64,000 nucleotides of DNA from Myxococcales bacterium (GCA_019634385.1 JAHQVK010000050.1:20072-84071), one strand, 5' to 3'; positions 32,806 to 57,727 are shown, counted from the stretch's first letter. The notes: generated by a model not told the origin, from the letters alone. Numbers and translations: made by a program.

Positions 32806-33016
32806 GTGGAAGACGACAGCCCCGGCCGGGGGCCTACGACGAAGACGCGGAACTCGGCCTCGAGGATGAGGGGGGAGGACGCTCTCGTCATCGACGATGC
32901 CGTGCTGGGGGCCATTGCTGGCGCCCCCACGTTGGCCGTCAAAGACGTCGAGACACTGTTCGCGGAGAACGAGCCGACCCCTAACTAGCTGACCATAACA
33001 GGCACACCCTAGGAGG

Positions 33017-33898: not shown

Positions 33899-34099
33899 CT
33901 CCCCATAGTCCGTGGTTTCTTGGGCAATTGCATCTCTGCCTCGGTTGTAACCTCCTCAATTCGGTCAACGATAGCGGTAAGCCCCAAGGCACTCACATGT
34001 CCAACGGCTCCCCACCGGATCACGATGAATCGGTGGTGCTCGCAGCACTCGCTATCGACTTTATCTAACCGCGGATCGCACGATGCCCATTACACTCCG

Positions 34100-37000: not shown

Positions 37001-37765
37001 GGTCAAATATGGACTGCGAAGGTTGACCTCACTGGAACCTGGAAGGTGCGGCGGCTACTCCGTCTCAACAACGCTGATGGAGATGGCCAGGTCATAGCCG
37101 GCGCCAAATCCCAAGACTACCGCAAAATCTTTAGTCGGCTAGATCTTGTTATATCGACCTGTCCCGGCCGACGTGCCTTTGGTGTGTATTTCGGCTCAGG
37201 TAACGTACAACGTGCAGCAGCTAACAACGCACTGCAGGATCCGAGTATCACCAATGGCCACGAGGTCATTGGGGTGGTTTGGGATACGGCTAGTCTACCT
37301 GATGATGCCAATCTCGACGATCTTGTGAACGTTACCGATGCATTTAAAGTAGACCCAAGAGCATCAGGGAATGAACATGGATGGTTTATCGAACTGGAAT
37401 CCGGTGAACGTATGCTCCGAGCCCCATTGGTTTTTGATGGGCTTGCACACTTCGACGTCTTTCAGCCGGTAATCAGTCCTACTGAATGCACCTCAGCCGT
37501 TGGTCAAAGCCGCACCCTTATCATGGATAATTGCACCGCTGAGCCGCTCAGAACACCAGCCGGATCCAGTCCTAGCGACGCCCGTACCGTAGCGGTCCGC
37601 AAGGATTCCAACATTGGGGGCGGTTTTATGCTCTATTCTCGTGCTGGGAAAGAAGCCATCATATCCCTCGGTCAGGAAGGTGAAGGCAAAGCAGCCCTAC
37701 CAACTATGAAGAACCGCCCTCTGGTTCGATTGTTCCTGTGGCGCCCATTCCGTGCTACAGATTGA
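34100..37765 (+). CDS. pilY1: PilY1-like type IV pilus tip-associated adhesin (N-terminal vWA domain and C-terminal PilY1 beta-propeller)
   Basis: Signal peptide MSVLWAAIILSSIP. vWA MIDAS motif LLLDSSCSMG ... YTIGF. C-terminal PilY1 motifs RGGRAYYLMDVS and SIYIGDECGQIWTAKVDL. Start set at the internal ATG. The upstream part of the 1315-aa ORF overlaps the DUF72 gene. Confidence 0.75.
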   Translation: MSVLWAAIILSSIPYGQTPDELDILRNRDTTPQIQLLLDSSCSMGWDPAPSICDDYPNRQSNMIGSYWNSGWYLSRVDQLKAALTGCKNSRDGILDTWDGRVLFSIREFGGSRTGLLSPFDPNFDNLPALESAVMNLPASGGTPLAPGYLKSAQYFDSFFNNSNSYQCRHNYIVVMSDGVGNHHAPVNFDFISGQSSVSVRDANSCFGTTYDWCPSPPYLDEAARYLYEDANGEEVDALSKVDGVQPIRTYTIGFQAPTAADALLQAMAIEGDGKAFSASSYSQLVQAFVEIIDNIIARSRVAFNTGVIQTSGLFASNFTYSSSFRPSAEGHWPGTTKKYCVIPDANYSDCLFINGSDGLEINPNPRDIWTGDKSSNADQGGTGEVIIKDIFRVNNNKSSPPSSPLTKRTILTWRPEHFGYVAVDPQILSGQETWTSNDCERYSLLTHLHGFTEDLADCDNANYQPLALDRWPIGASIHSEPVLLQYTSTCENTGDKCFVVTAANDGMLHFYNAVTGRETSAIIPAEFWRPNTIAHHTLAERSKQPFHTTSHRYYLDGGLRLHHFDTNTDGTISSGENAYLIVGLGRGGRAYYLMDVSAFSGVPSTRYNPIRPLIADEASGLQDLRDTWATPWTGYLQASSSKQQLIAVFPSGHIPELDEPDAPFANYPLAAPTTSADNEQSPHTISCEDAGIPAEICTTPNPATFCDELGLSCSSSSRCSPCNEPDAAQCIAAGLQPPYCYDWPGLNAVGTQIWTQIPLNVVAGPNRYETINHKANAFRIKFSRFDLQPGDYISIQNSHQDEVARLQGSYDTNLPVSPWIYDDSFSFHFVSDGENNSSAQGYTISEVEVLRDQTPPSPHKQHHPSIYIVDLLKWNQDKDLSPPYVSTDPGLFAAAPTGAKTNHADGIRVRITSHCTGHIGKNEICIDQTTSSDTKDLKWMSCPISATPTVFSEAGNLRSIYIGDECGQIWTAKVDLTGTWKVRRLLRLNNADGDGQVIAGAKSQDYRKIFSRLDLVISTCPGRRAFGVYFGSGNVQRAAANNALQDPSITNGHEVIGVVWDTASLPDDANLDDLVNVTDAFKVDPRASGNEHGWFIELESGERMLRAPLVFDGLAHFDVFQPVISPTECTSAVGQSRTLIMDNCTAEPLRTPAGSSPSDARTVAVRKDSNIGGGFMLYSRAGKEAIISLGQEGEGKAALPTMKNRPLVRLFLWRPFRATD

Positions 37766-37771
37766 GGATAC

Positions 37772-38251
37772 TTGTTCATGAACCCATACACACTCTTGCC
37801 TCTCCAACGGATGGTCATTAGCAGCGCACTCATGAGCTTGATCACTATCTCTGTACCAGTCAGTGCAGCTCCGGATGTATCCAAAACATTGCCAACACGC
37901 ACCTCCTCAACATCTCGAAAGCACCTGAAACGAGTTGTTGCGAGTCAGCCTGGCACCTATGATACCAACCGATTCACAGCACACGGCATCCTGCAAAGAG
38001 GTCCGGACGACTCTTACATACTCGTACGTCCGATTTCGCTGAAGAGCCGAACCCAAACCGCTCTCGCTCAACGAGTTTCTCTACAAAGAATACCCCATAT
38101 CCATGCACGTCAGGTGCTACGCGCACCCAATGGACCAAAACCTGAGGAACTGGAGCAACTAGTCAGCGAACACGTTTCTGCCATCCTTATCCGGGACCGC
38201 TCTGGTCACTACTTTCTTCGCTCTGTCACCCTATTTTCCTTAGGCAAGTAG
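37772..38251 (+). CDS. Small secreted hypothetical protein, immediately downstream of pilY1
   Basis: 159 aa with an N-terminal signal peptide. It has no prepilin GFTLIE motif, so it is not an obvious minor pilin. Confidence 0.4.
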   Translation: MFMNPYTLLPLQRMVISSALMSLITISVPVSAAPDVSKTLPTRTSSTSRKHLKRVVASQPGTYDTNRFTAHGILQRGPDDSYILVRPISLKSRTQTALAQRVSLQRIPHIHARQVLRAPNGPKPEELEQLVSEHVSAILIRDRSGHYFLRSVTLFSLGK

Positions 38252-40027: not shown

Positions 40028-42326
40028 TTGACTTCACGTCGTCAACCGGTAGCAAACCACCAAGAGGATGCAATACTAAAAACAAATTTGCTCATACTAG
40101 GTGCCATTGTTGGCGTATCAGCGACCATTGGCTGTGACGACCATGACGATGGAATTGTAGGTTTCCCACCTTCAAATCTACTCGGAACCATCACCGCCGA
40201 AAATCTCTCTGAGCTGGCCCAGGCGGTCACAGACGCCAACATAGAAAGTAATATCCGAAACGATGAACTCACCGTATTCGGTCCGACCAATGAGGCATTC
40301 TCTAACCTAAACACCACTTTCGAAAGTAAAAAGTTGCTGGCCAACCTATTGCTCTACCATGTGGTCGCTGACCACGAGCTTACTTTGGAAAAAATTCAAC
40401 AGGGGGATGGCATCATTACCCTGACTAAATGGCCACTTAAGTACGAAAGAAACACCCTCAACGGTTCAGAGCTCTCAGGGGACAAGCTCAACATCGAAGC
40501 TAGCAACGGTCTTCTTAACATCATTGAGAGAGTATTGATACCACCCACCATCTATGAAGCAGCGGTCGCTACACCTACGCTTTCTAAGTTATCCGAGCTT
40601 CTCAATACCGAAAACGAGGCCGTCATAACCATTAGGCAAATGTTTGATGCCAAAGACGCCGACGACGACGTCCTAAGTACCCTAGGTATTGGTCAAGAAC
40701 TAACCGTCTTTGCGCCCGAAAACACAGCTTTTACTGGAGATACCCCCGAAGGAGAAGATATGGTTAACCTTCTTCGGTACCACGCAGTCAAGGAACAGCT
40801 TCTCTCAAGGAACCTTATGAATATGGATGGTCAGATACTCACCACCATTTCGCCCCGAAAGATGAAGCAATTCCTCCGGAAATACCCGCCGGAACGGTGC
40901 TTTCGAACATTCTTCTTCATCACGTGAACATTCTTCTTCATCACGTAGTAGTAGGCAAAGAGACGATCGCCTCAGATGACATCAAGGCCAACACAAGCTT
41001 CACCACCGCCACCAATACAACCCTCACCGTAACCCAAGACGGTGCGTGGTCTCTATCAACGAAAGAGTTCTTGACCCCGACAAGTTGGATCAGGAAGCAA
41101 TCAACGGCGTAGTACACGGCCTGACGGACGGCTTTATGCTGCCCCCTTCGATCGAAAATTTTCTCGACGGTGAAGACTTTAGTGAACTGAGTGCATATGT
41201 GGATGACGCATTGGGCAAAAACCTCTTCAACCAGAAACCGTCTACACCATTTTTGCGCCCACAAATGATGCTATCCCCGACGATGAAACCATGGCTTCGG
41301 ATGCGAACATGTACCACATCATAGCCGGAGAGCAGATACTTCCCAACGCTAGTGAAAAACTCACTGTTGCAACTTTGCTTGACGACACCAGCCTTCTCGT
41401 GGAAGAAAGCAACAGTAAGTATTACATCACCGCCAATAGCAACGCTCGGTTTGCAGTCCAGAAAGTCGTCCGTCTGCTCAACGGGCTCGTGTACGTGATC
41501 GACCAAGTTCTAGATCCCACCGACGGAAAACTTCCCGCGACATTGGCAGGTGACTACACCAATTTCGCAACCCATCGATACCGTCGGTTTGACCCCAACC
41601 CTGGATAAACTAGGTAGGATATTCACAGTGTTTTCGCCGCAGAACGATGCCATTGACGCCTTCCAACTGGGTACTTACGACCAGCTCGAGAACATTCTTC
41701 TTCATCATCTTGTCCATCGACAAGTAGTATCTAACGACTTTATCGTAGGTGCTAGCTTTGTAACCGCGGCCAACACCAAAATAACCTTAACTCAAGGCGA
41801 AGGTGAAAGCTTGTTGATCGGTGATGTGGCATTCAACGCGGACGCAGGTGATATCCAAGCAACCAATGGTATCATCCACGGACTGGCAGACCACATGACC
41901 CCTCCCACCGTTTTAGAGTACCTAAAGAGCAATCATCCAGTATTGGTCTCCACCTTAGCTCTCGACGAGGGTGAGGATGATGACATCACCTTTCCCCAAG
42001 ACATTCTGACGATCTTTGCCCCCACTGATGCTGCTTTGGGAGAGCTTGAAGCCGATGCCACTACCGCGGAAGTCCTGACTTTCCACGTAGCATCTGGCCA
42101 GCAATACTCAGTAGTTGCTGGTAACGAACCACAAACCGTTGTTGATGTACCCACCGAATTGGGAGTCAACCTAAAGCTTAGCTACGAAGATGGTAACATA
42201 ATGGTGAGCCACAGCGAAGGGGATGCTGAGCAGAAACTACCTGTTCAAAAGACTATTCGTCTCTTAGACGGCATGGTTCATGTTATCGACGGAGTCCTGC
42301 TCCCCCCTGAACCAGTCGCCGAATAG
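40028..42326 (+). pseudogene. Multi-domain fasciclin (FAS1) secreted protein gene, disrupted by at least 4 frameshifts
   Basis: FAS1 motifs (TVFGPTNEAF, LLLYHVV, LTVFAPENTAF, FAPKDEAI, FTVFSPQNDAI, NILLHHLV, TIFAPTDAA) are distributed over five overlapping ORFs in different frames: 40028-40927, 40897-41112, 41046-41324, 41291-41608 and 41550-42326. Confidence 0.6.
40905..40946 (+). repeat. Perfect 21-bp tandem duplication (gaacattcttcttcatcacgt x2) inside the FAS1 gene
   Basis: Seen directly in the sequence. It encodes NILLHHV twice, so it is in frame and not itself a frameshift. Confidence 0.85.
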
Positions 42327-42335
42327 CCCCACTCA

Positions 42336-44081
42336 TCAGGATACGCTAGCCAGGGCTGAAAGACACAGTCGAAACACTGTGCCCAAACCGGTTGGCGAAC
42401 GGTAAGTTAGCTCTCCGCCATGCGCCCGCACAATGGCACGAGCAATATCCAAACCTAATCCCAACCCATTTCCTCCTTTGGTCGAAAAGAACGGCTCAAA
42501 AACCCGGTCGCCAATAGTAGACGAAATCCCTGGACCGTTATCTTGAACCTCGATCGTAGACCACCCATCCTCCTCATCCACGGTCAAGATAATCCGACCC
42601 GGCGTTTCGCCCAGAGCGTCCGCAGCATTCTTGATTAGGTTCACAAGCACCTGTCGTATCCGCCCCGGATCTACTTCAGCCCAAGTATCCTCGTTTACCA
42701 CAATTCGCATCTCGTGTCGTTTTACCCCAGTATCTATCTGTGTGAACCGGACTACAGCCCGACAGAGATCAGCCATATCGGTCGGCTGCCGACGCTCCGC
42801 CACCGACTGTGCCCCTCTCGCAAAGCCCTTCACTTCCGAAACCAGATCCACAATATGCTGCCGAGCCTCGAGCATCATTTCCACAGCAGCCTGTGTTTCT
42901 TTGTCGTCCGGATACTTACGGGCAATCATATCCGCCAATGCAAATGGCGAAAGATGATTGTTCACTTCGTGAGCCAATCCACTCGCTAACCGCCCCACAA
43001 TCGCTAATTGCTCGGACCGTACCAATTGCGCTTGGGTGCATAATAGGCTTGCCTGCGCTTCCTTAAGCTTCTGTATCGTTTCTTCCCTCCGCTCCGCAAG
43101 CCTCAGGTTTTCAAGGGTTTGGCCCACCATAAACGCAATAAGGGTCAATAGATCCAGATCTGGCTCTGAAAACCGATCAATAGTCTCACTCTCGACGACC
43201 ATCGCTCCCAACAACCGGTCACGCAGAAGAATTGGTACCGCCATAAAAGCTTGAGTAGGACTGAGGAACAACGACTCCGAGGCCGCAAACCGATCATCGT
43301 CACCTAGATCTCGGCTCAGTACGGCACACCGCTGGGATAGGACATACTCAACGACGGTCGTAGATAGTTGAGGAAGATCCTGCACTTTATCTGAAGACCG
43401 GCAGCGATATATATCTACCTGAAAATCATCCCTTGAAGTATGTGAGCTATCCTCTCGCGATCCTTCATCGTCCGAAAGCGCCACAAACGCTCGTTCCCCT
43501 TCGAGCACATTCAAGACTCCATCGAGGACTTCAGCAAGCATCTCGCGAGGATGATGACTTTCTCGAAGCGTTCGACTGAGTTCATGGAGAACGGCAAACT
43601 GCCGAGTTTTTTGTAGCAGCTCCCCGGGAGCCCTAATATCGAGCAGTGTATTGTCACCCAGTCCCAGCGATTGAAAGAAGGTGTCTTTGCCTAGCGAGTC
43701 CAACGTGGGGATATCATCCACAGATACCGGTTTGATCACCTTGCCCCACAAATTAGGCACAACGGGCTTGGCACTGTCCGGCATGTGAACCCGGAGCCGA
43801 TACGGACCAACCATAAGCACATCGCCATGACCTAGCTCGTGCCGCGCTACCCGAACACCATTCAATACTGTCCCATTCGGGCTATCCAAATCTTGTAACA
43901 CCCACTGACCACGCTCTAGAAAAACACGAGCATGGTGCCGACTCACCCGGCGATCTTGAATCTGCACCCCGCAATCTGGGGCCCGTCCTAAGATCGCCGC
44001 CCCACTCAGGGTAATACGCTGGCCCGCCTTGGCGTCGGGCGCTTCAAAGCAAAGCTCCATATGGACACCATCATCCTCCAC
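42336..44081 (-). CDS. FHA-GAF sensor histidine kinase
   Basis: N-terminal FHA (GRAPDCGVQIQDRRVSRHHARV...SPNGTVLNG). Central GAF. HisKA (LASGLAHEVNNHL). HATPase (NLIKNAADAL, DNGPGIS, GLGLGL). Confidence 0.85.
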   Translation of the reverse strand: MEDDGVHMELCFEAPDAKAGQRITLSGAAILGRAPDCGVQIQDRRVSRHHARVFLERGQWVLQDLDSPNGTVLNGVRVARHELGHGDVLMVGPYRLRVHMPDSAKPVVPNLWGKVIKPVSVDDIPTLDSLGKDTFFQSLGLGDNTLLDIRAPGELLQKTRQFAVLHELSRTLRESHHPREMLAEVLDGVLNVLEGERAFVALSDDEGSREDSSHTSRDDFQVDIYRCRSSDKVQDLPQLSTTVVEYVLSQRCAVLSRDLGDDDRFAASESLFLSPTQAFMAVPILLRDRLLGAMVVESETIDRFSEPDLDLLTLIAFMVGQTLENLRLAERREETIQKLKEAQASLLCTQAQLVRSEQLAIVGRLASGLAHEVNNHLSPFALADMIARKYPDDKETQAAVEMMLEARQHIVDLVSEVKGFARGAQSVAERRQPTDMADLCRAVVRFTQIDTGVKRHEMRIVVNEDTWAEVDPGRIRQVLVNLIKNAADALGETPGRIILTVDEEDGWSTIEVQDNGPGISSTIGDRVFEPFFSTKGGNGLGLGLDIARAIVRAHGGELTYRSPTGLGTVFRLCLSALASVS

Positions 44082-44212
44082 TGCGTATATGATATTCGTT
44101 TCACAAACAAAGAGCGACGACCAATCATCAATTCCGAGCTGCTCACGATACTTCGACAGGAGAGATGTCGTCCAGGGAAGCCAAACATCTCCACTCAGCT
44201 AAGCTGAGCGAC

Positions 44213-46237
44213 TCAATCTGGTGAAAGTCTATAGAGACCGTACTCGGCCTCGGAGACCACAAAAAGGAGGGTGCCAGTCCAAAACGCATGGGCAACTTTC
44301 GACACCTGTGGTGCACCTTCATCGACCATCCGCTGCCATCGATCTTCCGATAGCCTAAGTTGACTTCCCACGACCGGATCAAAGAGTTCCTGGCCACCAA
44401 TTACCATCAGCACCCCATCCGCGAACACCATCCCTGGACGAACTCTAGCGGTTGGTGCTTCGCCACCTGGAGGGAGGTCTGTCCATTCACCAGTCCCGGG
44501 ATCGAAACGAGAGCCTCCACTGATCGCAACCTCTACTATCCCGTCATCTTCTAGGGTGTATCCGCCGAAGAAAATCATCTCTTCACCGGTCCACACCACT
44601 CCGTGGCCATGACGCTCTTGGAGAAGAGGATCCTCCAAAAGCATCCACTTATCGTCCTCAGGCTCAAAACGGAACGTCTCGTGCAGATTTCTCTGTGACC
44701 GATTGGGATCCAGATCCAGCGTGGCGCCCCCATGCACAATCATATGGTCACCAGTCCACACTGCGACATGTCCTCGTCGAGGTGAGTAGTTGCTCGGAGA
44801 ATTAACTGGCACCCACTGGTCATCGGGAGGTGCATCAGGTCGATAGCGATAACCATCTTGCAGTAGTCGTGGAGCAAGAGGATCGGAGTTTCCCACCCCA
44901 CCAAAGACGATCATCTCTTCACCAGTCCACACCGCAGTATGCTCAGCTCGAGCACCAACCGTTTCTGGAACCTCTAAAGCAGTCCAAGTATCGGTTGTTG
45001 GGTTGTAGCACGCACCGTCTGAGAGCGGCGTCTTAGTCACACCACTACCGTATCCACCAAAAACGATCATCTCTTCGCCGGTCCACACCGCGGTGTGCTT
45101 AGTCCGAGCTCCCGGAGCATTTGTAGTGCTCATAGACGACCAGGTGCTGGTCTCAAGATCGTACACAACCCCATTTGCAACTACCTGCTCTCCTTCTTTC
45201 CCACCCCCAAAGAAGAGGATCTCCGTGCCAGCCTGAACGCTGGAGCTACCGGACAAAATCGGTGATACTCCCACCGATCGCTTCACCCATTGACGAAGAC
45301 AGCGAGAAGGAGAGTTTAGCGGACGATCACAAAGCCAGCCTGGTTCAACCTGGCAAGTCTCACTGCACCCATCATTGTCCAGCTGATTACCGTCATCACA
45401 CCTTTCACTATCTACAACGCGGCTGTCGCCACATAGCGCGGTACAAAAAGAGGGCTGGTTGTTATCACAGGTCCACCCCGGTTCTGGGGTGCATGTTGCG
45501 CTACAACCATCTCCAGACACCTGATTTCGGTCATCACAAACCTCAACCCCCTTCTCTACTCTCCCATTGCCGCACTCAAAGCAGCTCGACTGCTCCCCTA
45601 CTCGTCCTGGGCAGGTCCACCCTTCTTCGATGATACAGTCCTCACTACACCCATCATCCTCGGTATCATTGCCATCGTCACATGCCTCACCGGTAACTCT
45701 GCGACCATCACCACACTCGGCGATGCAGGTTGAGGGCAGGGGTTCTACAGCGCACTGAAAGCCGAGCTCTAAACGGCAGGTGGTGCTGCAACCATCTCCT
45801 CCCACCGCATTGCCATCATCACACTCCTCGCCCCCAACCAACTGCGCATCACCGCATTGGCCATCACATCTACTCGGTGAAGCCACTCCACACGTCCATC
45901 CGGTCTCCACCACGCAGTTTGCTGAGCAACCATCGCCACTTAAAGTATTATTGTCATCGCATGCTTCCGGCTGAATCCGTTCACCATCACCACACTCAGG
46001 TACGCAGACGGAAATCCCGTCCGGGCCGATTTGACATACAAATCCTACTTCGAGGCGACAGACCGAACTACAGCCATCAAAGTTGTTGCGGTTGTTGTCA
46101 TCGCAAGCCTCAAACCCATCAACCACCCCATCTCCACAATCTCCCAAGAGAAGATCCAAATCGCGGGAACGCGTACAAGCACCCGCAACTATGAGTATCA
46201 ACAGCAATCCTACAACTATTCGTGGAGTCTCCATCAT
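44213..46237 (-). CDS. Secreted protein with Myxococcales-type Cys-rich repeats (CGDG...EACDDGN) followed by Kelch beta-propeller repeats
   Basis: Signal peptide. About 8 tandem 'C..DG..EECDDGN...DGCS..C' repeats. Then repeated VWTGEEMIVFGG Kelch motifs. Confidence 0.8.
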   Translation of the reverse strand: MMETPRIVVGLLLILIVAGACTRSRDLDLLLGDCGDGVVDGFEACDDNNRNNFDGCSSVCRLEVGFVCQIGPDGISVCVPECGDGERIQPEACDDNNTLSGDGCSANCVVETGWTCGVASPSRCDGQCGDAQLVGGEECDDGNAVGGDGCSTTCRLELGFQCAVEPLPSTCIAECGDGRRVTGEACDDGNDTEDDGCSEDCIIEEGWTCPGRVGEQSSCFECGNGRVEKGVEVCDDRNQVSGDGCSATCTPEPGWTCDNNQPSFCTALCGDSRVVDSERCDDGNQLDNDGCSETCQVEPGWLCDRPLNSPSRCLRQWVKRSVGVSPILSGSSSVQAGTEILFFGGGKEGEQVVANGVVYDLETSTWSSMSTTNAPGARTKHTAVWTGEEMIVFGGYGSGVTKTPLSDGACYNPTTDTWTALEVPETVGARAEHTAVWTGEEMIVFGGVGNSDPLAPRLLQDGYRYRPDAPPDDQWVPVNSPSNYSPRRGHVAVWTGDHMIVHGGATLDLDPNRSQRNLHETFRFEPEDDKWMLLEDPLLQERHGHGVVWTGEEMIFFGGYTLEDDGIVEVAISGGSRFDPGTGEWTDLPPGGEAPTARVRPGMVFADGVLMVIGGQELFDPVVGSQLRLSEDRWQRMVDEGAPQVSKVAHAFWTGTLLFVVSEAEYGLYRLSPD

Positions 46238-48246
46238 GGGGATACTCCTCCAGCTATTGACGAGCGTGTTTCCACCTCTGGCAGCGCCCGTTCTGTTACT
46301 TGTTTAATAGTTGGAGTATGAGATGATCGTGGAGGCTCAAAAATCCATTGCATCAATGCTGTTCCCACCAAAAATGAGGCCACCCCTAGAGCAGAAAACC
46401 CGATAGTCTGCGCTCGCTCTCGGCTGTCCTCTGACTCACGAGCGATAGCCTGGGTGGTCTCAAACCGGATGGTGCCCGCCAATCCATCCAATCGAGCAAT
46501 AGCTTCATCGCGATGGCTAGCAGCATCATGGGCTGCAACCATTCGTTCTGCGCCTACCCCTGCTGCCACTGCGCTAAGCCCAAGGCTTAGCCACTTTGCC
46601 CACCGAGCAGCATAAATTTTTGGCTTCGCCGGCGCCTGTGACATCTTCAGTGATGAAGTAGGTATCTCTGTAGAGAAGGCCATAGAAGGCGATGTTACTT
46701 TCTTTGTGGGCGCATTTCGGATCCACCAGCGAGGAGTGGTCTGCATGAATGTGACGACGCTCGGCGTATTCACCGCTTCAAACTCACCAACGACCGTCTG
46801 CCCTCCTACCTGTTTCCATCTATCAAGCAACCGTAGTAAGAGCTCCGAGGGTACCCGTTCCTCCTCACCTGACGGGGCAGCGGTAGCCGTGGCTAAAGAC
46901 TGCTCCACAGGGATATCTATACCTGTTCCTTGCACACCGAATTCATAAGCTACTAAGCCCAGCTGATACCTATTCGCAAGCTCGGCCATCATCGCCAACT
47001 GGGCAAGTTCCACCGAAATTGGGTCCGTTTCTGAAGAAGACTGTTCAACAACCACCTTCTGCTCATGTATCGAAGGCACTAGCAGCTTCACTCCTAGTAC
47101 ATCTATACCGTCTAAGACGGTATTTTGCTTAAGCAGCGATTCAACAACATCTTTGCGTTCCAAAGGAACAGTCAGCACCCGCACCAGGCGGGATGGATCC
47201 AGGTGATGATACATAGCTGCAAAGAGGTCAGTAGAGCGCTGAGCGCGGTATTGAATGGCGCCCAAGATGGGGTCTGCATCAAGTACCCGCCAAGCCACAG
47301 CTGGTGGCTGTTCATCGGCAGTACCATATTCAAGAAAGAGTTTTTGTGAGGGCAATAATCGTTCACTAACCAACTTCGCGAGAGCCTCAACATAAGCCTC
47401 GTTCGCGGTCCATGGAAGCGCTAACCACACGTCCGCGTGGAGTGCATTAGCGAGATCGAGGCTATGTTCGTACGCTGCCCCACTAGGTCCGGTTTGAATG
47501 CCATAGTTAGCTAGAATACGACGGTCCCAGTCGGAGGATTTCATCATATTCCCCTGCCAATCTACCATTCGAATAACAGAGAATTTTTCAAGCTTATGTA
47601 AAAGTTGATCCTGATACTTGGGTACAGCCTTCTTGCCCTCATAGTTCGCTCGAATAATGCGGATATTTTTTATTGGAAGCGAAGGGCTCACTCGACGAAT
47701 TTGCAGAGCCACTCGAGCTTGAGTCGCTGTCCAGAAAATACGACCAACATCGTTGGTACGCACATTACTAGCCCCCTCCACCACTAACTCTCCATCTCCC
47801 TCAAAGATGGTTATATAGTCAGCCCCAGGAACCACACCAAGCTCCGCATAAGCCACCTGATCAGGTAGTAATTGGCGCACCCACCCCTCTTCATTGAAAG
47901 ACACGGGCCTAGAGTCCGGTTCCCCCTCACGGTTTGCTGAACGCCACTCAGAAGCCTCTCGAAAGCGATTCGTAAACACCATCAGCCCTCGCTCGAGCCC
48001 CAAAGGCGGAAGGTTCACACCTACGGGGGAGCTCGTATTGCGTGCCGGACGTTGCTCATCAACAACCTCGGGAAGTTCATCAAACGCCCCAGAATCATCC
48101 TCTGGAACCGCCCATTCGAAGTGTCTCTCCGCAGCAACCGGTGAAACAGCAACCGGCGGGGGCGGATACACCACCACACAAGCCGCGGTTCCCTCCAGAA
48201 TCATGCCTATCCCCAAAACTAGGGAAAAAGCCGCACGAAATCCCAC
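46234..48246 (-). CDS. Hypothetical 670-aa protein with an N-terminal signal and C-terminal TM helices. Its stop overlaps the start of the downstream Cys-rich/Kelch gene by 4 nt.
   Basis: Long intact ORF with no recognisable catalytic motif. Two hydrophobic helices near the C-terminus. Confidence 0.55.
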   Translation of the reverse strand: MGFRAAFSLVLGIGMILEGTAACVVVYPPPPVAVSPVAAERHFEWAVPEDDSGAFDELPEVVDEQRPARNTSSPVGVNLPPLGLERGLMVFTNRFREASEWRSANREGEPDSRPVSFNEEGWVRQLLPDQVAYAELGVVPGADYITIFEGDGELVVEGASNVRTNDVGRIFWTATQARVALQIRRVSPSLPIKNIRIIRANYEGKKAVPKYQDQLLHKLEKFSVIRMVDWQGNMMKSSDWDRRILANYGIQTGPSGAAYEHSLDLANALHADVWLALPWTANEAYVEALAKLVSERLLPSQKLFLEYGTADEQPPAVAWRVLDADPILGAIQYRAQRSTDLFAAMYHHLDPSRLVRVLTVPLERKDVVESLLKQNTVLDGIDVLGVKLLVPSIHEQKVVVEQSSSETDPISVELAQLAMMAELANRYQLGLVAYEFGVQGTGIDIPVEQSLATATAAPSGEEERVPSELLLRLLDRWKQVGGQTVVGEFEAVNTPSVVTFMQTTPRWWIRNAPTKKVTSPSMAFSTEIPTSSLKMSQAPAKPKIYAARWAKWLSLGLSAVAAGVGAERMVAAHDAASHRDEAIARLDGLAGTIRFETTQAIARESEDSRERAQTIGFSALGVASFLVGTALMQWIFEPPRSSHTPTIKQVTERALPEVETRSSIAGGVSP

Positions 48247-48292
48247 CCTCGCTTAGTGCACTCCGACGGTCAGCGGGTCCAATGTCTTGCGA

Positions 48293-50131
48293 TTAACGAC
48301 CCCGAAAATCTCCCACCGACGATTTGTTTAGCGGAGAAGTTACGTCCCCTGCGGATTCGAGCAAACGTTGGCGTCGAAGTTTTCCGAGCGAGCGGGCAAG
48401 AACCTGAGCCACCTGTGCCGCCCGCGAAGGACGAGACACGACCGAGTTCGAAAGACACTGCATGATGCAATCTTTGACTTCCGGCGGGAGATTTTCGATA
48501 ACCGGCAGCTCAGGGGGCAAGGCGGTCATGCGTTGTTTGAGCGCATCTACCGTCGGTTCAAACGGGGGCCTTCCTGCGAACATCTCCCAGAGCACCACAC
48601 CCAAAGAAAAGATATCTGCCCGCGGATGGGGCGGGCGGCCTCGAGCTTGTTCTGGTGACATATACCGAATCGTACCCACCATCATCCCCTCTTCGTGGTC
48701 AGCGTCTTGTTGAACGGCAACCCCAAAATCCATCAGTTTCGGCCGGGCCTTCCGATTCACAAGGATATTGCTCGGTTTGATATCCCGGTGGACAATTCCT
48801 GCCGAGTGGATCGCCTCTAGGGCCTCCGCAAGACGGTGTCCCACGTGAAGGGCCAGAATAAGTTCAAGTCGTCCGGAACGGAGAAGATTTCTCAGACTTC
48901 GCCCTTCAAAATACTCCATGGCCAAAAAGGTCAGATCCCCTTCTCGACCGAAATCGAAGATCTCTAAGCAACCCGGATGGTGCACCTGAGCTGCCAACCG
49001 AGCTTCAACCAAAAAGCCTTCGAGCGCGTCCGGATTGTCGACATGACGATCCGACAGAACCTTGATCGCTAGTTCGCGATCCAACACCTGGTCTCTCGCA
49101 CGATAAACTTGCGCTTGGGCACCTCGACCAACCTTCTCCTCCAAACGAAAGCGACCGCGTAGCAAGGTACCAGACAAGTCCTCCGCTGATGAAATGGAGG
49201 GGGTCAGTGCCAATAGAGGGCCTACATCCAATGGAGCGGAGGTCGCTGAGGCTTCTCCATTTACTTTAACCACCGCACTGATCGCGGCATCGATTTCGGA
49301 GGTTGAACTCACCGAGAGCCCCGGCTCATTCCCCCCCAAGATTTCGAGTGTGCGGCCATCAGGCGCAATCTCTCGCCCGGATAAAGCGGTTAGGTCGGCC
49401 TTGTTCTCTCCGTCCACAAACGCCAGATCATCCGTTCCTTGGCGTGGAACCCAGTTGGCTGCCGGATGCTGAGGATCGAAGCGCTGAACTACAGAACGGA
49501 GATGAAGAGCGTAGATATCCGCGCCTAGAGCCTCGGCTGCCGTCAACTCGCGAACCCATGCTTCAACATCCTGAGCGAGAGGACTCCGACCCCGGCGAGC
49601 AATGTACGCATCCCGAAATCGAGCCCGAGTTTGCACCCAATTTTCTCTCACCAACAATGAATGATCTGAGGCAGCCCCTCCTTCAACTGCAGCTTCACCA
49701 ATCAGTGGTGAAAATGGCGGATTTTTCTTTTGAGTGTCTCGATTCGATGAGTCCGATACGAACGACACCAATCGTGCTGGAGAAACCTTCAACGAAGCTA
49801 AGCCCGCGGGGAGGGTTGGCGCACGGTGCGAAACTACAGTAGGGGCCCGAGTACCGAGAAGCTGCGCCGCTCGGTCGTGCTGACCAGTGCGAGCAGCAAT
49901 CACTACCGCAGAGTCAGTCAATCCTCGCTCGACCAGTAGCTCCACCGCCACTTCTGGTTCACCACTCTGTTCATAGATGCGGGCTGCTCGGGTGACCAGG
50001 CGTCGGCCAGCTTCTTCATGGCCGTGCGAGAAAGCCTCAGTTGCTTGAGCAACCAGTTTAACGGCCACACGCGTGGAGCGACAGCTATCAGCCCGCTTAG
50101 TCAAGTTCCTCCCCCAGTCGCTGCTAACCAC
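48293..50131 (-). CDS. Ser/Thr protein kinase with the kinase domain at the C-terminus and a helical N-terminal domain
   Basis: Hanks motifs in the C-terminal half: GRGAQAQVYRA...AIKVL, HRDIKPSNILV, DFG, SPEQ. About 290-aa helical N-terminal region. Confidence 0.85.
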   Translation of the reverse strand: MVSSDWGRNLTKRADSCRSTRVAVKLVAQATEAFSHGHEEAGRRLVTRAARIYEQSGEPEVAVELLVERGLTDSAVVIAARTGQHDRAAQLLGTRAPTVVSHRAPTLPAGLASLKVSPARLVSFVSDSSNRDTQKKNPPFSPLIGEAAVEGGAASDHSLLVRENWVQTRARFRDAYIARRGRSPLAQDVEAWVRELTAAEALGADIYALHLRSVVQRFDPQHPAANWVPRQGTDDLAFVDGENKADLTALSGREIAPDGRTLEILGGNEPGLSVSSTSEIDAAISAVVKVNGEASATSAPLDVGPLLALTPSISSAEDLSGTLLRGRFRLEEKVGRGAQAQVYRARDQVLDRELAIKVLSDRHVDNPDALEGFLVEARLAAQVHHPGCLEIFDFGREGDLTFLAMEYFEGRSLRNLLRSGRLELILALHVGHRLAEALEAIHSAGIVHRDIKPSNILVNRKARPKLMDFGVAVQQDADHEEGMMVGTIRYMSPEQARGRPPHPRADIFSLGVVLWEMFAGRPPFEPTVDALKQRMTALPPELPVIENLPPEVKDCIMQCLSNSVVSRPSRAAQVAQVLARSLGKLRRQRLLESAGDVTSPLNKSSVGDFRGR

Positions 50132-50254
50132 CAGCGGCCAAGTCCAACCTTAGCGGAGATTGACCAGGAGGAAAACGCTTTCGGACAAAGGATGGAATTA
50201 GCAGTCACTTGGTCGGTTGATCTTTGCATAGCCTCGGCTGAGGGTAAGTAGTAT

Positions 50255-51754
50255 ATGGGGATCCCTGAACGGGACCTTCTCCGCGACGCTGTCGCCAGCA
50301 TGACGGGGGAAGGCTATTTTGTACTCGATCTCATGGGGCGGTACGTCGCTTTCAATAACGTACATAAGGAGATGATGAGTGGTGCAGCGGAACTCTCACC
50401 TCAGATCGGTGAATTCTTCCTACACCTGCTCTACCCTGGCTCAAAATCTGACATATCGCCCCCGTCGCACTCACTCCAGAATGCGTTCACCGATGCGCTT
50501 TCTGGAGTGGTTACTGTAGGTTCTGTTCGCCAAGCTGGTGGGATCAAACTGGAATTTGAGATTAAGTTTAGCCCATTGGGCTCACCGGAAATCCGAGGTG
50601 TCATTGGCCGACATCCCGGGCCTGGTGGACGCCGGATACCGTTGGCAGTAGAGCCCGTGCCGGCACCCATCGCCCAACTCTCCGACGGCGTCCTCAATGA
50701 ACTTAATAACTTAGGGGTCGGATTGAGCGGTGTACTAGAAACACTAAACCAAAGTGCTGCTATGTCTTCCGGGGAAGCTCAACTTAGTCAACGGGTAGCG
50801 ATCGAACTATTGGAGCAAGTACGCACCCGAGCCGAACGAGCCCGACGCCTCGGACGAACTATTCGCTCCCAAGCAATGCCCTCGCCGGATGCCGAGATGG
50901 ACGTAGATGTATGGCTGGCAGACTTGGAGCCAAAACTTCAAGCGCGGGCTCCTGGGGTGAAACTGCATGTGGAGCGAGGTCTAGGCAATGCGCGCATCAT
51001 CGCCCACACCCAGGAGCTCGAAGATGCTCTCTTCGAGCTCGTGCAAAACGCGGCACAGGCCCACGCCGATCATATCGTAGTTCGCTCTAGACTAGAGCTC
51101 TCAACAAGCACCCAGTCCCCCAAAACGATGACTCTCGAGGTAGAAGACGATGGTGAAGGCATTTGCAAGGAGCGGATTGATCGGGTGCTCGAGCCTTACG
51201 TCGGATCACGGAAGCACACTCAGGGCATAGGACTCACCCGGGTCAAGAGCATTGCTGGTACCCACGGAGGCTCAGTAGCTATTCGGTCCGGTCCCTCCGG
51301 CGGAACCATCGTGGCGCTTCATCTACCTCTGTCTCATCGCAATGAGCCGGAAACAATGGATCTTCACGTAGAGACCTTCCAACCCCCCCCGCAACAATCC
51401 ATACTCGTTGTGGATGACGCTCCAGAAGTACGACGGGTGTTGGGCCGAGTCCTACGTAATGCCGGTCACGATGTCTTCGAAGCGGAGGATGGACTGGATG
51501 CATTGGAGAAACTGAGTGAGCGCCACACCATGCCCGACCTCATCATTCTCGACTTGATGATGCCCCGTATGGACGGGATCGAAACCTACCGAGAACTGCG
51601 GATGCGCTCTGAAATTCTTCCCATACTTATCACTAGTGGCTACCACCCATCGAGTCTCGACTTCCTGACCACCGACGGCCAGGCCAGGTTCCTGCCTAAA
51701 CCGTTTTCTCCAACCGAAGTACTTGCCTCCGTTGACCAGCTCTTGAGCAAATAA
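50255..51754 (+). CDS. Hybrid sensor histidine kinase / response regulator
   Basis: PAS-like N-terminus. HATPase (QNAAQAHADHIVV...GIGLT). C-terminal receiver (ILVVDDAPEVRRVL...ILDLMMPRMDG). Confidence 0.8.
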   Translation: MGIPERDLLRDAVASMTGEGYFVLDLMGRYVAFNNVHKEMMSGAAELSPQIGEFFLHLLYPGSKSDISPPSHSLQNAFTDALSGVVTVGSVRQAGGIKLEFEIKFSPLGSPEIRGVIGRHPGPGGRRIPLAVEPVPAPIAQLSDGVLNELNNLGVGLSGVLETLNQSAAMSSGEAQLSQRVAIELLEQVRTRAERARRLGRTIRSQAMPSPDAEMDVDVWLADLEPKLQARAPGVKLHVERGLGNARIIAHTQELEDALFELVQNAAQAHADHIVVRSRLELSTSTQSPKTMTLEVEDDGEGICKERIDRVLEPYVGSRKHTQGIGLTRVKSIAGTHGGSVAIRSGPSGGTIVALHLPLSHRNEPETMDLHVETFQPPPQQSILVVDDAPEVRRVLGRVLRNAGHDVFEAEDGLDALEKLSERHTMPDLIILDLMMPRMDGIETYRELRMRSEILPILITSGYHPSSLDFLTTDGQARFLPKPFSPTEVLASVDQLLSK

Positions 51755-51762
51755 GAGAACAC

Positions 51763-53187
51763 ATGGCGTCCTCTTTGGATATTCACCTCATTGGTATCTG
51801 TGGCACGGGGATGGGAAGTTTCGCCGGCCTTCTTAAAGCATCAGGACACCGAGTTCGGGGCAGTGATCATAACGTATATCCACCTATGTCTGACAAGCTT
51901 ACTGCGTGGAACATACCGGTCATGCAGGGATACCACCCAAACAACCTGCTACCTCATCCCGATCTGGTCGTTATTGGTAACGTAGTCCGCCGCACTAACC
52001 CTGAAGCCGTAGCTGTCCTCGAAAAAGGACTCAAATATGCCTCATTCCCAGAAACCCTGGGGGAATTATTCCTAAAAGAGCGACGTTCGCTCGTCGTTGC
52101 TGGCACTCACGGCAAGACAACAACCAGTAGCCTCTTAGCGTGGTTACTCACTCACGCGGGGAAAGATCCCGGCATGTTAATCGGCGGCATTCCCCAGAAC
52201 TTTGGCGAAGGTTTCCGAATGGGTTCGGGTCCGGCATTCGTTGTAGAAGGTGATGAGTACGACACCGCATTTTTTGATAAACGGCCAAAATTTCTTTCTT
52301 ATTGCCCTCAGCTGGCCATTTTAACTTCCCTTGAGTACGATCACGCCGACATCTATCCCGACCTGGAATCTATTGAGATGCGTTTTGATCAACTGACAAC
52401 TCTCGTGCCGAAGACCGGATATATTTTGGCCTGCGCCTCCTCGGAACCAGTTCTGCGAAGAAAATCCCGTGCTGAAGCAAAGTGGGAAACATACTCTGCG
52501 AAGCCCGGTATTGAAGCCGATTGGCAAGTTAGTCATGTACTACCACACACCGATGGCGTCCGGTTTACTATCCTCCACCAAGGCACATCCATGGGCGACG
52601 TCAATCTTCCCATGTCCGGAAGGTATAATGTGGAGAATGCCTTAGCAGCCACTGCCGCCGCCATACATGAAGGCCTGAGTTTCGACGAAGCCCGAGAGGG
52701 CCTTGCTTCATTCAACGGGGTCGCCCGCCGACAAACAGTCGTAGCAGAAATCAACGAAATTAGGATCATAGACGACTTTGCCCATCATCCAACCGCCGTA
52801 GCAAGCACCCTGGACGGTATTCGAGAACGGTACGGCGCCAACGGGCGTATCCTAGCGGTCTTTGAACCCAGGAGTGCCACAAGTTCTCGCAAGTACTTCC
52901 AAAGCGCCTATGCAAATGCCTTTGGAGCAGCTGACTACGCGCTGATTGCGCCCGTCGGTCGTTCAGAGCTCAGCATCGAAGAGCGGCTCGACACCACTCA
53001 ACTAGCAGAACATATCCAAGCCTTAGGCACTCAAGCTCGTGCGTTCACCGATTTAGACGCTCTTGTTCAGGCCATCGCAATTCTAGCTCGCCCCCGCGAC
53101 ACCATCGTGTTCATGAGCAATGGTGGATTTGATGAGATCCACAAAAAGACCCAAGAGCGACTCGCCCAAAGGCCTAAAGATAGATAG
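51763..53187 (+). CDS. mpl: UDP-N-acetylmuramate:L-alanyl-gamma-D-glutamyl-meso-diaminopimelate ligase (murein peptide ligase)
   Basis: IHLIGICGTGMGSFAGLLKASGHRVRGSDHNVYPPMS, GTHGKTTT and EGDEYDTAFFDKRPKF...LEYDHADI are collinear with E. coli Mpl. Confidence 0.85.
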   Translation: MASSLDIHLIGICGTGMGSFAGLLKASGHRVRGSDHNVYPPMSDKLTAWNIPVMQGYHPNNLLPHPDLVVIGNVVRRTNPEAVAVLEKGLKYASFPETLGELFLKERRSLVVAGTHGKTTTSSLLAWLLTHAGKDPGMLIGGIPQNFGEGFRMGSGPAFVVEGDEYDTAFFDKRPKFLSYCPQLAILTSLEYDHADIYPDLESIEMRFDQLTTLVPKTGYILACASSEPVLRRKSRAEAKWETYSAKPGIEADWQVSHVLPHTDGVRFTILHQGTSMGDVNLPMSGRYNVENALAATAAAIHEGLSFDEAREGLASFNGVARRQTVVAEINEIRIIDDFAHHPTAVASTLDGIRERYGANGRILAVFEPRSATSSRKYFQSAYANAFGAADYALIAPVGRSELSIEERLDTTQLAEHIQALGTQARAFTDLDALVQAIAILARPRDTIVFMSNGGFDEIHKKTQERLAQRPKDR

Positions 53188-53470: not shown

Positions 53471-55285
<1,815 letters not shown>

Positions 55286-55666
55286 ATATTTCTATACCTT
55301 CCAAAATTTGCGCATGCCTCTTTGGCTAACGCAGTCCTATAATTGTATACATCTGTAAACTAGCAAATATTGTATCGTTCGCACCACAGAACGCATAGCG
55401 TAAACATGCCCACTAAATGGGCGCATCTGTCGAAGGCACGCGACACAAGAGTATGATGCGTTCTGGCCAAAGCGCAAGACATACTCGCTATGTCCACTAA
55501 GAATGGCAACATCATAGTTACGCATGTCGATTAACGTGTCCTCGGTCTTCACTTTCGAATGCAGAATTGCACAACACATGTGCGTAGAAGAACTCCCGCA
55601 CCCTAAGCGACTGTTGTGGCTCTATCCGTAATTCTCAGTAGTGCCTCAACCAGGTCAATCTCCAGG

Positions 55667-55778
55667 TTAACCATATACAGCAAAGACTCCTTGAATTGAT
55701 TCTGTAAGAATCAACAAGGAGTCGCGCAGCAGGGCATTGCCCCGCTGCGAAGCTGGAACTTGGGTTCAACCCAAGTTC
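55667..55778 (+). repeat. MITE-like structured repeat, copy D (full length)
   Basis: tACAGCAAAGactccttgaattgattctgtaagaatcaacaaggagtcgcgcagcagggcattgccccgctgcg...ggaacttgggttcaacccaagttctTTCTGCTGTa. Confidence 0.85.
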
Positions 55779-56071
55779 TTTCTGCTGTAAAGGTATCGCT
55801 CGGCCTACTCTTCACCTGAGGTATGTCTTTTACGTCGGAGGTGCTCTATGACTCGCCCCCAATTAGCGAAATGTCCGGCGACCTGCGATCCCCCGTCTTG
55901 CTGCTAGCCTCTCCTTCAACTCGCTATGACCAACCTCGATCCGAGTAAAACATTCAGGTAAACCAAGGTATTTCGCAATAGTTCTACGCGGACCTTAAAG
56001 ACACGCCATAGTGAGGAATACTCCTCCATCAGTGATAGAGGAGTATTTGAACCACAAAATTAACCCACCTC

Positions 56072-57727
56072 TTACCGGTAGAGACGATAGATAGTGCCAC
56101 CATCTGTGAGAATATAGATCGATCCGTCTGGAGCTTCGGACAACTCTCGAAAACGAACATTCATATCCTCAAACATTTTGGTTTCGCTGATCACCGCTTC
56201 ACCATCCAACGTAAGACGTGAAATATGTCGCCCTGCCAACGCACCTACGAATAGGTTCCCTTTCCATTCGGGAAACATATTCCCTCGATAAAAAATCATC
56301 CCTGATGGGGCTATAGACGGCGTCCAGTAGTGGATCGGCTCTATGAAACCCTGTCCTGCATGGTCATCCGGAATCTGTTCTCCATTGTAATGGCTTCCAT
56401 AACAAGCTAACGGCCAACCATAGTTTTCACCTGCTCGCGGAATATTAACCTCGTCCCCACCTTGAGGACCATGTTCATGATTCCATATCTTTCCGGTTGT
56501 TGGATGAACAGCCATTCCCTGAATATTGCGATGCCCATAAGACCAGATTTCTGGCCTTGCATTTGCTTGATTCACAAACGGATTATCATTGGGAACCTGA
56601 CCATCAGGATGGATGCGGATGATCGTTCCAAGATGGTTATTGATATTCTGAGCTTGATCATACTCAAAATATTCGCCGAGGCCGATAAATAGATGCCCAT
56701 CCTCGTGGAATGCCAATCGACAGCCATAGTGAAGACCCCCTCCTCCTATTTTGGTGGCAGTAAATATTACCATCCAGTCCTGTAATCGCGCCCCATCAAA
56801 ACGAGCGCGGGCCACCTCCGTTCCCGACTGATTTCCCTCTTCTCCAGCGTAACAAAAGTATACATATTGATCTTGGGCAAAGGTTGGACCAACCAATACA
56901 TCCAGCAGTCCTCCTTGACCTTCCGCCTCAATATTAGGCAATCCGGCTAACGGGGAAGACAGCATGTGGTCGTTACCCAAAAGGCGAAGATTTCCCACCT
57001 TCTCTGTCACTAGAGCGCGACCATCAGGTAAGAAATCCAAGCCCCATGGCCAACTCAGACCATCAACAACCACCGCCATCTGAGGCTCTCCAGTTGGTAC
57101 TGGTTCGGGGACTGGCTCCGGTTCGGGGACTGGCTCCGGTTCAGGGACTGGCTCCGGTTCAGGGACTGGCTCCGGTTCAGGGACTGGCTCCGGTTCGGGG
57201 ACTGGTTCCGGTTCGGGGACTGGCTCCGGTTCGGGGACTGGTTCCGGTTCGGGGACTGGTTCCGGTTCGGGGACTGGTTCCGGTTCGGGGACTGGTTCCG
57301 GTTCGGGGACTGGCTCCGGTTCGGACGCACCGCAGCGCACACCATTGACCACAAACATTGCGGGCACGTTGGATGAGCTGCCATTTGACGCTCCAATAAA
57401 TCCTGGACTAACTGATCCACCGGAAGGAATATTGCTATTCCAAGACTCATGGGTTACAGTGACCATCTGTGATGAACTTGATTGCTCAAACTGTCCCGCC
57501 CACCCCTGAACAATAGATTGGGTCTCAGGCAATAGAAATTCTAACTGCCAATTAGTTATCGCATTAGATCCAGTATTTTTAATAGTTATCTGACCTTGAA
57601 AACCGCTATTCCAAGAGTTCATGATCCTATAATCAACATCACAAGAAACTTGAGCCCACGTCGGCGAGGTAGCAAAGATCATCCCAACCGCCGTCAGTCC
57701 CGTGTGGACTACCCTAAATATATTCAT
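56072..57727 (-). CDS. Secreted CBM2-(EPEPVP)n-PQQ-dependent soluble sugar (aldose) dehydrogenase (GSDH/YliI-like six-bladed propeller)
   Basis: Signal peptide. CBM2 ([25 protein letters not shown]...NGVRC). 20x EPEPVP linker. GSDH blocks [42 protein letters not shown] and [17 protein letters not shown]...[11 protein letters not shown] match the YliI/Asd family. Confidence 0.75.
57098..57325. repeat. 18-bp tandem repeat (ggttcggggactggctcc)n encoding the (EPEPVP)n linker
   Basis: About 12 near-identical units seen directly. They generate spurious repeat ORFs on both strands. Confidence 0.85.

Follow-up and report, generated by a model that had tools for sequence, protein, structure and literature searches.

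A predicted, apparently non-hydrolytic GH-A-like barrel protein and a Kelch lipoprotein share a conserved gene module with soluble kinase-type proteins in a Myxococcota lineage

We analyzed a 64,000-nucleotide stretch of DNA from a Myxococcales bacterium (GCA_019634385.1, JAHQVK010000050.1:20072-84071; the window) and asked what is encoded by five adjacent genes between positions 42,336 and 51,754. They encode a Ser/Thr kinase, a 670-aa envelope protein, a Cys-repeat/Kelch lipoprotein, an FHA-GAF-histidine kinase (HK) and, divergently, an HK-like protein with a receiver domain. We propose, with some reserve, that the locus is a conserved five-gene module reaching from envelope to cytoplasm, in which a pair made of a glycan-binding pseudo-glycosidase and a β-propeller feeds an Esp-like relay of kinase, FHA kinase, and receiver; we regard this as a strong possibility that stops a little short of being probable. 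Taken more broadly, it is probably a module of the cell envelope that senses or handles sugar polymers. The components all belong to known kinds; the novelty lies in a sub-clade of barrel proteins that has been made membrane-anchored, propeller-partnered, and apparently non-hydrolytic and that forms part of an operon combining Ser/Thr and His-Asp signalling with a His-less kinase.

All five open reading frames (ORFs) were reproduced in a six-frame ORF list (Table 1). The coordinates, the domains, and a 4-nt gene overlap assigned by an earlier, sequence-only reading of this DNA were all borne out by this list, by Pfam and NCBIfam, and by the sequence itself. The junction between the 670-aa ORF and the Kelch gene reads ...CCATGATGGAG, so that the Kelch ATG and the TGA stop of the 670-aa ORF share the letters ATGA, and a Shine-Dalgarno sequence, GGAGGAG, lies immediately 5' of that ATG. 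The two genes are translationally coupled. On the other side of the locus, mpl begins 8 nt downstream of the HK-like/receiver gene, and the spacing is 12, 27, and 44 nt in three relatives (L002, L003, and L005). Because these gaps are short, the two genes are probably co-transcribed, and the adjacency hints at a possible link between the HK-like/receiver gene and peptidoglycan recycling. A promoter and terminator scan of 41.5-52 kb gave signal at or below shuffle expectation and was uninformative; there were no Rfam or tRNA matches in the region.

We examined six related lineages (L001, L002, L003/L004, L005/L006, L009, and the P0013 contig, from look-ups for P0002, P0009, P0012, P0013, P0010, and P0011). 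The order Ser/Thr kinase, GH-A-like gene, a gene for 639-716 aa, FHA-GAF-HK was found in all six, and wherever DNA was at hand the 639-716-aa gene encoded four to six DUF4215 repeats plus Kelch. The pairing of the Kelch gene with its unassigned partner, which the sequence-only reading had singled out, was therefore upheld in every lineage, and the kinases were conserved along with the pair. The barrel and Kelch genes overlap by 4 nt in five of the six lineages (L001, L002, L003/L004, L009, and the P0013 contig) and by 40 nt, as called, in L005/L006. The kinase/barrel junction is likewise a 4-nt overlap in L003 and L005, and the Kelch and HK genes overlap or abut in L001, L002, and L005. Where the contigs reach that far (L002, L003/L004, and L005/L006), they also carry the divergent HK-like/receiver gene and, after it, mpl. 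At L009, the four genes are kept together and the downstream context is different.

The 670-aa protein is identical in sequence to MBX2810925.1, a hypothetical protein. It had been described as having no recognisable domain, and at the level of sequence profiles this is correct: the ORF had no Pfam or NCBIfam match even at E<=10, and the PDB yielded only chance matches (E>1), whether queried with the protein, with canonical family members, or with the family profiles A2 and A4. At the level of the fold, the description did not hold. In an AlphaFold2 (AF2) model whose core has a predicted local distance difference test (pLDDT) score of 70-90, we found the (β/α)8 TIM barrel that is required of clan GH-A. 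According to the model, the ectodomain folds as a TIM barrel of a divergent, clan GH-A-like type, with about 10% identity to any solved enzyme. From the N terminus, the protein consists of a lipoprotein-type signal, a Pro-rich linker, the barrel with an inserted β-sandwich, a further linker, and a C-terminal membrane hairpin. The signal peptide of the sequence-only reading was confirmed. Its lipobox-like motif, GTAAC, is non-canonical at the -3 residue, with Cys23 following the hydrophobic N terminus; this Cys is almost invariant in our 10-sequence alignment (A5) and is present in all 7 kinase-linked members. As for the C-terminal transmembrane (TM) helices called at the same time, hydropathy supported one clearly (613-637) and the other, a Gly/Ala-rich helix (549-567), more weakly.

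We then asked how far this barrel extends beyond the locus. Our first, word-indexed search recovered four homologues besides the 670-aa protein, one of them 36% identical and three distant; with alignment A2 as input, such a search gave the cluster of the query alone. In the alignment, the distant homologues displayed the motifs LRFMDW..TN, VEYSNE.WN, and VAYEGGQH, and one of them bears CBM9, BACON, and a type IX secretion system (T9SS) tail. An exhaustive HMMER search put the family at no fewer than 2,626 clusters (50% identity) at E<=1e-3, with 970 at E<=1e-10. Ten canonical members had no match in Pfam at E<=10 or in NCBIfam, the family has no model in either database and no PDB relative by sequence or profile, and among the names found, "hypothetical protein" was the only one used. 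The suggestion that the 670-aa ORF represents an uncharacterised family was sound, in that neither Pfam nor NCBIfam has a model for it and none of its homologues has been solved. However, the protein is not a domain-less orphan but a divergent member of a large family, and it matches a well-known family halfway, at the level of clan and fold only, through the fold of the family and the GH-A motifs carried by most members. The genomic surroundings of one canonical member (locus L011) gave no clue to a substrate, and two genome-contig profile scans and one metagenome-contig scan yielded no confirmed relatives.

To take a census of the catalytic motifs, we aligned the best 150 representatives to the family hidden Markov model, which gave 210 domain hits. 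Asn-Glu follows the modelled β4 strand in 141 of the 210, and Glu stands at the end of β7 in 138. Where both columns were aligned (156 domains), 133 had Glu at both the β4-end acid/base and the β7-end nucleophile positions, the acid/base Glu usually lying within the Asn-Glu motif. These are the positions that define clan GH-A. From its sequences, the bulk of the family looks catalytically competent. Its accessory modules include PA14, dockerin, BACON, CBM9, GLEYA, and NPCBM. In some members, which reach about 4,000 aa, the barrel is repeated two to four times in tandem, and one member carries fused Sigma70/FecR domains.

The window clade differs from the canonical family in a lipoprotein-type signal with a conserved Cys, an additional C-terminal module, and an incomplete catalytic pair. 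Neither the window protein nor any orthologue keeps the full pair of catalytic Glu residues. At the nucleophile column, the six full-length orthologues have T, R, S, S, S, and R, and the fragment P0060 has A. Unlike the six orthologues, the window protein keeps Glu at this position (Glu435, in VAYEFG). At the acid/base site, it has LEYG-T309-A310 where the family has EYSNE, and thus lacks the Asn-Glu, although Asp311-Glu312 follow directly and a 2-residue register shift could apply. Of the 10 sequences in alignment A5, 9 have the acid/base Glu and only the window protein lacks it; in the clade, the Asn preceding this Glu is replaced by D, T, S, or E. The window protein also has deletions at β6 and β8. 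As judged from these alignments, the nucleophile column appears to be without selection in the kinase-linked clade. Such free variation speaks against classical retaining hydrolysis as the function for which the clade is selected; the barrel of this clade is apparently non-hydrolytic. The GH-A-like gene is also the fastest evolving of the module, with 32-37% identity to its orthologues versus 38-45% for the Kelch protein, 43-53% for the Ser/Thr kinase, 48-60% for the FHA kinase, and 61-67% for Mpl.

The C-terminal module of about 95 aa is missing from canonical family members. A single motif, WAKWVSLG...ER...RD...FD.LQ..VR.AED.R..AQ..GF.AVG..SAL.GWA.AQWL.EPP, is found in all 8 orthologues, and the loop between the two helices is exactly 43 aa long in all 8 sequences. 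The second TM helix is followed by W-L-[DE]-E-P-P and an acidic tail.

The partner of the barrel protein is a Kelch protein, orthologues of which were found at every related locus. Its signal peptide carries a VAGAC lipobox-type motif. Six Cys-rich, acidic repeats of the myxo_disulf_rpt/DUF4215 type at aa ~33-310 scored 259.1 bits with TIGR02232 (cutoff, 20.8) and 125.5 bits with DUF4215 (cutoff, 27). They are followed by a Kelch β-propeller at aa ~325-674 (E, 2e-40; Kelch_KLHDC2, 138.9 versus a cutoff of 50), whose PDB matches are generic protein-binding Kelch domains. We considered an enzymatic Kelch role of the galactose oxidase or NanM type and rejected it: the NanM and mutarotase models scored far under their cutoffs, and the PDB matches were of the generic kind. 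Our literature searches found no published description of a DUF4215-Kelch or Kelch/FHA/Myxococcus module of this kind.

We next considered the signalling proteins. The Ser/Thr kinase is of the Hanks type. Its Pkinase domain occupies aa 329-574 of 612 (DNA 48410-49147; 166.6 bits versus a cutoff of 31.7), and the motifs LAIKVL, HRDIKPSN, DFG, and SPE are present and invariant in four aligned kinases. A single-sequence AF2 model shows a TPR-like helical bundle at aa ~10-93 (DNA 49853-50104; pLDDT ~90), the remainder being of low confidence, and the N-terminal helical motifs are conserved across four orthologues. The unusual placement of the kinase domain at the C terminus, after a helical N terminus, is thus real and conserved. 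The other two Ser/Thr kinases of the window, at 11595-13289 (minus strand) and 59452-61080 (plus strand), have the usual N-terminal kinase domain. The FHA kinase has FHA (E, 1e-18), GAF (3e-12), and HATPase_c (6e-24) domains, the canonical phosphothreonine-binding residues GR, SRHH, and NGT, and an H-box, GLAHEVNNH, with His371 (DNA 42969-42971); the His box is conserved in L001.

The earlier description of three sensory kinases of different types was overstated. The HK-like protein has a CA domain at aa 253-360 and a receiver at aa 383-493 with intact Asp433 and Lys482. However, in its H-box, GVLN148ELNNL, Asn148 (DNA 50696-50698) replaces the phospho-accepting His, and there is no other His in the helix. 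The motif G-x-x-NELNNL, including Asn148, is invariant in four aligned orthologues. Lacking this His, the protein should be unable to autophosphorylate in the usual way, and from its sequence it is best seen as a receiver-bearing pseudo-kinase. By hydropathy, all three kinase-type proteins are soluble, with no TM segment. The 670-aa protein is the only membrane-spanning component, which makes it the candidate membrane partner for the relay.

These components suggest the following mechanism. The barrel would have been recruited as a glycan-binding pseudo-glycosidase and would form, together with the Kelch propeller, an extracytoplasmic receptor, the ligand of which is probably a cell-surface or environmental polysaccharide. 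A small cytoplasmic part of the GH-A-like protein, either the hairpin loop or the tail, would pass the state of the ligand to the Ser/Thr kinase, perhaps contacting it through the TPR-like N terminus. Phosphothreonine, arising by autophosphorylation of the kinase or on a substrate, would recruit the FHA domain of the HK, which would then phosphorylate the receiver of the His-less partner, in parallel with EspA acting on EspC in Myxococcus xanthus. A regulated extracellular function, which had been suggested from the arrangement of the genes, remains a conjecture, and it is no less likely that signals run the other way, with the envelope pair as the sensor that feeds the kinases. In its fullest form, the proposal is that a trans-envelope glycan receptor of pseudo-glycosidase and Kelch drives the Ser/Thr kinase, the FHA-GAF-HK, and the His-less receiver in turn, the last perhaps cotranscribed with mpl. 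This would be a new type of receptor, tying the status of envelope polysaccharide or peptidoglycan to a Ser/Thr and His-Asp relay in Gram-negative Myxococcota, and as a whole we think it rather doubtful.

Two known systems resemble parts of this mechanism. The closest described one is the Esp system of M. xanthus, where EspA, an FHA-bearing kinase, phosphorylates the EspC receiver and may work together with Ser/Thr kinases (PMC4320627). The system comprises EspA, EspC, PktA5, PktB8, and EspB, and, as here, the FHA-HK is encoded with Ser/Thr kinases and a second HK-like protein with a receiver. EspA was the best-scoring NCBIfam model for the FHA kinase (145.9 versus an equivalog cutoff of 1400), and EspC was among the top models for the HK-like protein (108.2 versus 1200). 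Since both scores are far under the cutoffs, the likeness is one of mechanism only and not of family membership. Moreover, the present FHA kinase carries GAF where EspA has PAS domains and is without a receiver, its HK-like partner lacks the H-box His, and the membrane component is a GH-A-like protein with a Kelch lipoprotein rather than EspB. For the barrel, a precedent is RsgI6 of Clostridium thermocellum, in which a GH10 module of very low activity serves as a polysaccharide sensor (PMC4711584). Both proteins carry a clan GH-A-type barrel outside the cytoplasm on a membrane protein, and a sensor role would be shared. However, RsgI is an anti-sigma factor that crosses the membrane once and signals to SigI through proteolysis, whereas the 670-aa protein is partnered by a Kelch lipoprotein together with a Ser/Thr kinase and an FHA-HK. 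We found neither an RsgI anti-sigma domain in the 670-aa protein nor a sigma factor gene in the neighbourhood, and the likeness is functional only.

In the main alternative explanation, the GH-A-like/Kelch pair is an envelope enzyme complex that trims or remodels the cell's own exopolysaccharide or another envelope glycan, and the kinases control how much of it is made or how active it is instead of taking signals from it. We consider this explanation unlikely, though to be taken seriously. Such a complex would have to work with a single catalytic Glu, by substrate-assisted catalysis, or with a nucleophile from the partner. Compared with clan GH-A hydrolases (GH5, GH51, GH53, GH79, GH30, and GH39), the window protein has Thr-Ala for Asn-Glu, the orthologues lack the nucleophile, and both a lipoprotein signal and a C-terminal membrane hairpin are additions of the clade. 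Of 7 orthologues, 6 keep the acid/base Glu, and Ser turns up repeatedly at the nucleophile site, which could mean non-canonical catalysis rather than lost activity. Most of the family looks competent and has CBM-type modules. Exopolysaccharide operons include periplasmic glycosidases (PslG, PelA, PgaB, and BcsZ) as a standard component. PslG (GH39), PelA, and the C-terminal domain of PgaB are envelope TIM-barrel proteins of the glycosidase type encoded with deacetylase and glycosyltransferase genes, and the barrel domain of PgaB was long regarded as non-catalytic.

A sister clade has the same arrangement. Its members (P0014, P0016, P0020, and P0021, at the four loci L007, L010, L012, and the P0016 contig) have Ser or Asp at the nucleophile site and the hairpin in two tandem copies. 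At all four loci, the barrel gene is followed directly by one or two SGL/NHL six-bladed propeller genes, and operon-linked kinases are absent. In L007 and L012, genes for a CE4 polysaccharide deacetylase and a GT4 glycosyltransferase lie divergently upstream of the barrel. That the pair occurs in a clade without kinases indicates that it is older than the kinase association, and its older context hints at exopolysaccharide handling, so that the ancestral role of barrel and propeller looks like polysaccharide processing. The window clade itself fits an enzyme less well. Its nucleophile column includes T, R, S, A, and E, the window protein has no aligned acid/base Glu and has deletions at β6 and β8, and its gene evolves faster than the others. 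The window operon has no glycosyltransferase, carbohydrate esterase, or export gene; no sequence relationship to the exopolysaccharide glycosidases was detected, and kinases and an invariable β-propeller partner stand in place of their usual neighbours. An enzyme complex also leaves unexplained why the pair is so tightly coupled to three soluble signalling proteins without sensors of their own.

It could also be that the pair on the one hand and the kinase, FHA kinase, and receiver on the other are two separate units, adjacent by descent alone. Shared gene order runs past the module in L002, L003, and the window (dnaG, rpsU, a second kinase, an epimerase gene, and mpl), so that part of the synteny may reflect inheritance and not function. 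All of the relatives found belong to one lineage, as the identities of Mpl indicate, and in the sister clade the pair does without operon-linked kinases. However, the pair sits between two kinase genes on the same strand, with 4-nt overlaps or abutments at the junctions, and the four genes have stayed together despite a two-gene insertion by mpl in the window and the altered context at L009. Adjacency by descent alone is therefore improbable in our estimation. That the 670-aa ORF is a wholly novel fold or family, unrelated to anything known, is hardly credible: the empty Pfam, NCBIfam, and PDB searches and the uniform "hypothetical protein" names would fit it, but homologues bear GH-A catalytic motifs on the expected strands as well as carbohydrate-binding modules. 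With the fold model, a wholly novel fold is essentially excluded.

Several of these observations, namely the kept acid/base Glu and recurrent Ser, the kinase-less sister clade with its CE4 and GT4 neighbours, and the longer shared gene order, also weigh against a receptor that feeds the relay, and there are others. The AF2 model of the 670-aa protein was built from a 5-sequence alignment and is of moderate quality (mean pLDDT, 60.9), and its Foldseek matches are generic TIM barrels. TM1 of the hairpin is weakly hydrophobic, the 43-aa loop is net acidic, and the positive-inside rule gave no orientation. By eye, neither the hairpin loop nor the tail shows an evident conserved Thr for FHA binding. 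The receptor proposal also goes beyond the domain identities, the degenerate catalytic pair, the operon, and its conservation, all of which we observed, at three steps that we infer: glycan binding, contact between the pair and the kinases, and the direction of signalling.

Table 1. Positions of the module genes and of features within them, with the sister-clade loci. Positions are those of the window except for the sister-clade loci.
Feature	Position	Strand	Evidence or remark
Ser/Thr kinase gene, first in operon	48293-50131	-	Pkinase E 9e-49
670-aa GH-A-like envelope protein gene	46234-48246	-	Fold model, family alignments
Cys-repeat/Kelch lipoprotein gene, 674 aa	44213-46237	-	TIGR02232, DUF4215, Kelch
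FHA-GAF-histidine kinase gene, last in operon	42336-44081	-	FHA, GAF, HATPase_c matches
His-less HK-like/receiver gene, divergently transcribed	50255-51754	+	HATPase_c + receiver
mpl (murein peptide ligase)	51763-53187	+	TIGR01081, 425.5 bits versus cutoff 388.7
ATGA stop/start overlap, GH-A-like gene/Kelch gene	46234-46237	-	Junction sequence
Predicted signal peptide ending at Cys23, lipobox-like GTAAC	48178-48246	-	Hydrophobic segment aa 5-28
Predicted GH-A-like barrel domain, aa 70-505	46732-48039	-	Predicted secondary structure, family alignments
β4 end, aa 303-312, LFLEYGTADE	47311-47340	-	Thr309-Ala310 replace family Asn-Glu
β7, aa 430-436, GLVAYEF	46939-46959	-	Glu435 kept
C-terminal hairpin module, aa 549-636	46339-46602	-	Gly/Ala-rich helix, 43-aa loop, TM helix, acidic tail
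Sister-clade loci	L007 8001-12918; L010 703-4535; L012 8001-11802; P0016 contig		Barrel + SGL/NHL genes

Elsewhere in the window, at 53471-57727 (minus strand), between mpl and the epimerase gene, lie genes for a CBM2+GH6 cellulase and for a CBM2+PQQ glucose/sorbosone dehydrogenase, each protein having Pro-rich linkers. This pair is found in the window only, while mpl and the epimerase gene adjoin in L002, L003, and L005; judging from this comparison, the cellulose-active pair looks inserted. The kinase gene at 59452-61080 lies within a conserved block of epimerase, kinase, (rpsU), and dnaG genes, as in L002 and L003. On the other side of the module, two fasciclin-domain genes, at 40028-40927 and 41550-42326 (both plus strand), are convergent with the FHA kinase gene. 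A fasciclin gene also lies downstream of the module in L001 and the P0013 contig, and MatE transporter genes are nearby in several loci. For a 1,315-aa ORF at 33818-37765 (plus strand), the only match was a weak one to the PilY1 β-propeller that fell short of the Pfam cutoff, and the adjoining 159-aa ORF (37772-38251) had no family match. ORFs of 654 aa at 14361-16325 (plus strand) and 477 aa at 26390-27823 (minus strand) matched no Pfam family at E<=1e-5. The GC content peaks at 0.617, versus ~0.52, at 32001-34000, over an epimerase-like gene and a DUF72 gene, and nothing unusual was found there.

Together with its CBM partners and its GH-A motifs, the size of the GH-A-like family and the lack of any model for it make it a candidate new glycoside hydrolase family. 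Within this family, one sub-clade has lost the nucleophile, has acquired membrane hairpins, and is invariably accompanied by a β-propeller protein. The source of the window is a metagenome-assembled genome of an uncultured member of the Myxococcota, which is a limit of this work. If the receptor reading is true, a GH-A barrel without its nucleophile and a β-propeller, Kelch here and SGL/NHL in the sister clade, would make up a new two-protein envelope module. The locus would then be a tractable example both of extracytoplasmic input to bacterial Ser/Thr kinases that lack TM segments and of the conversion of an enzyme into a receptor.

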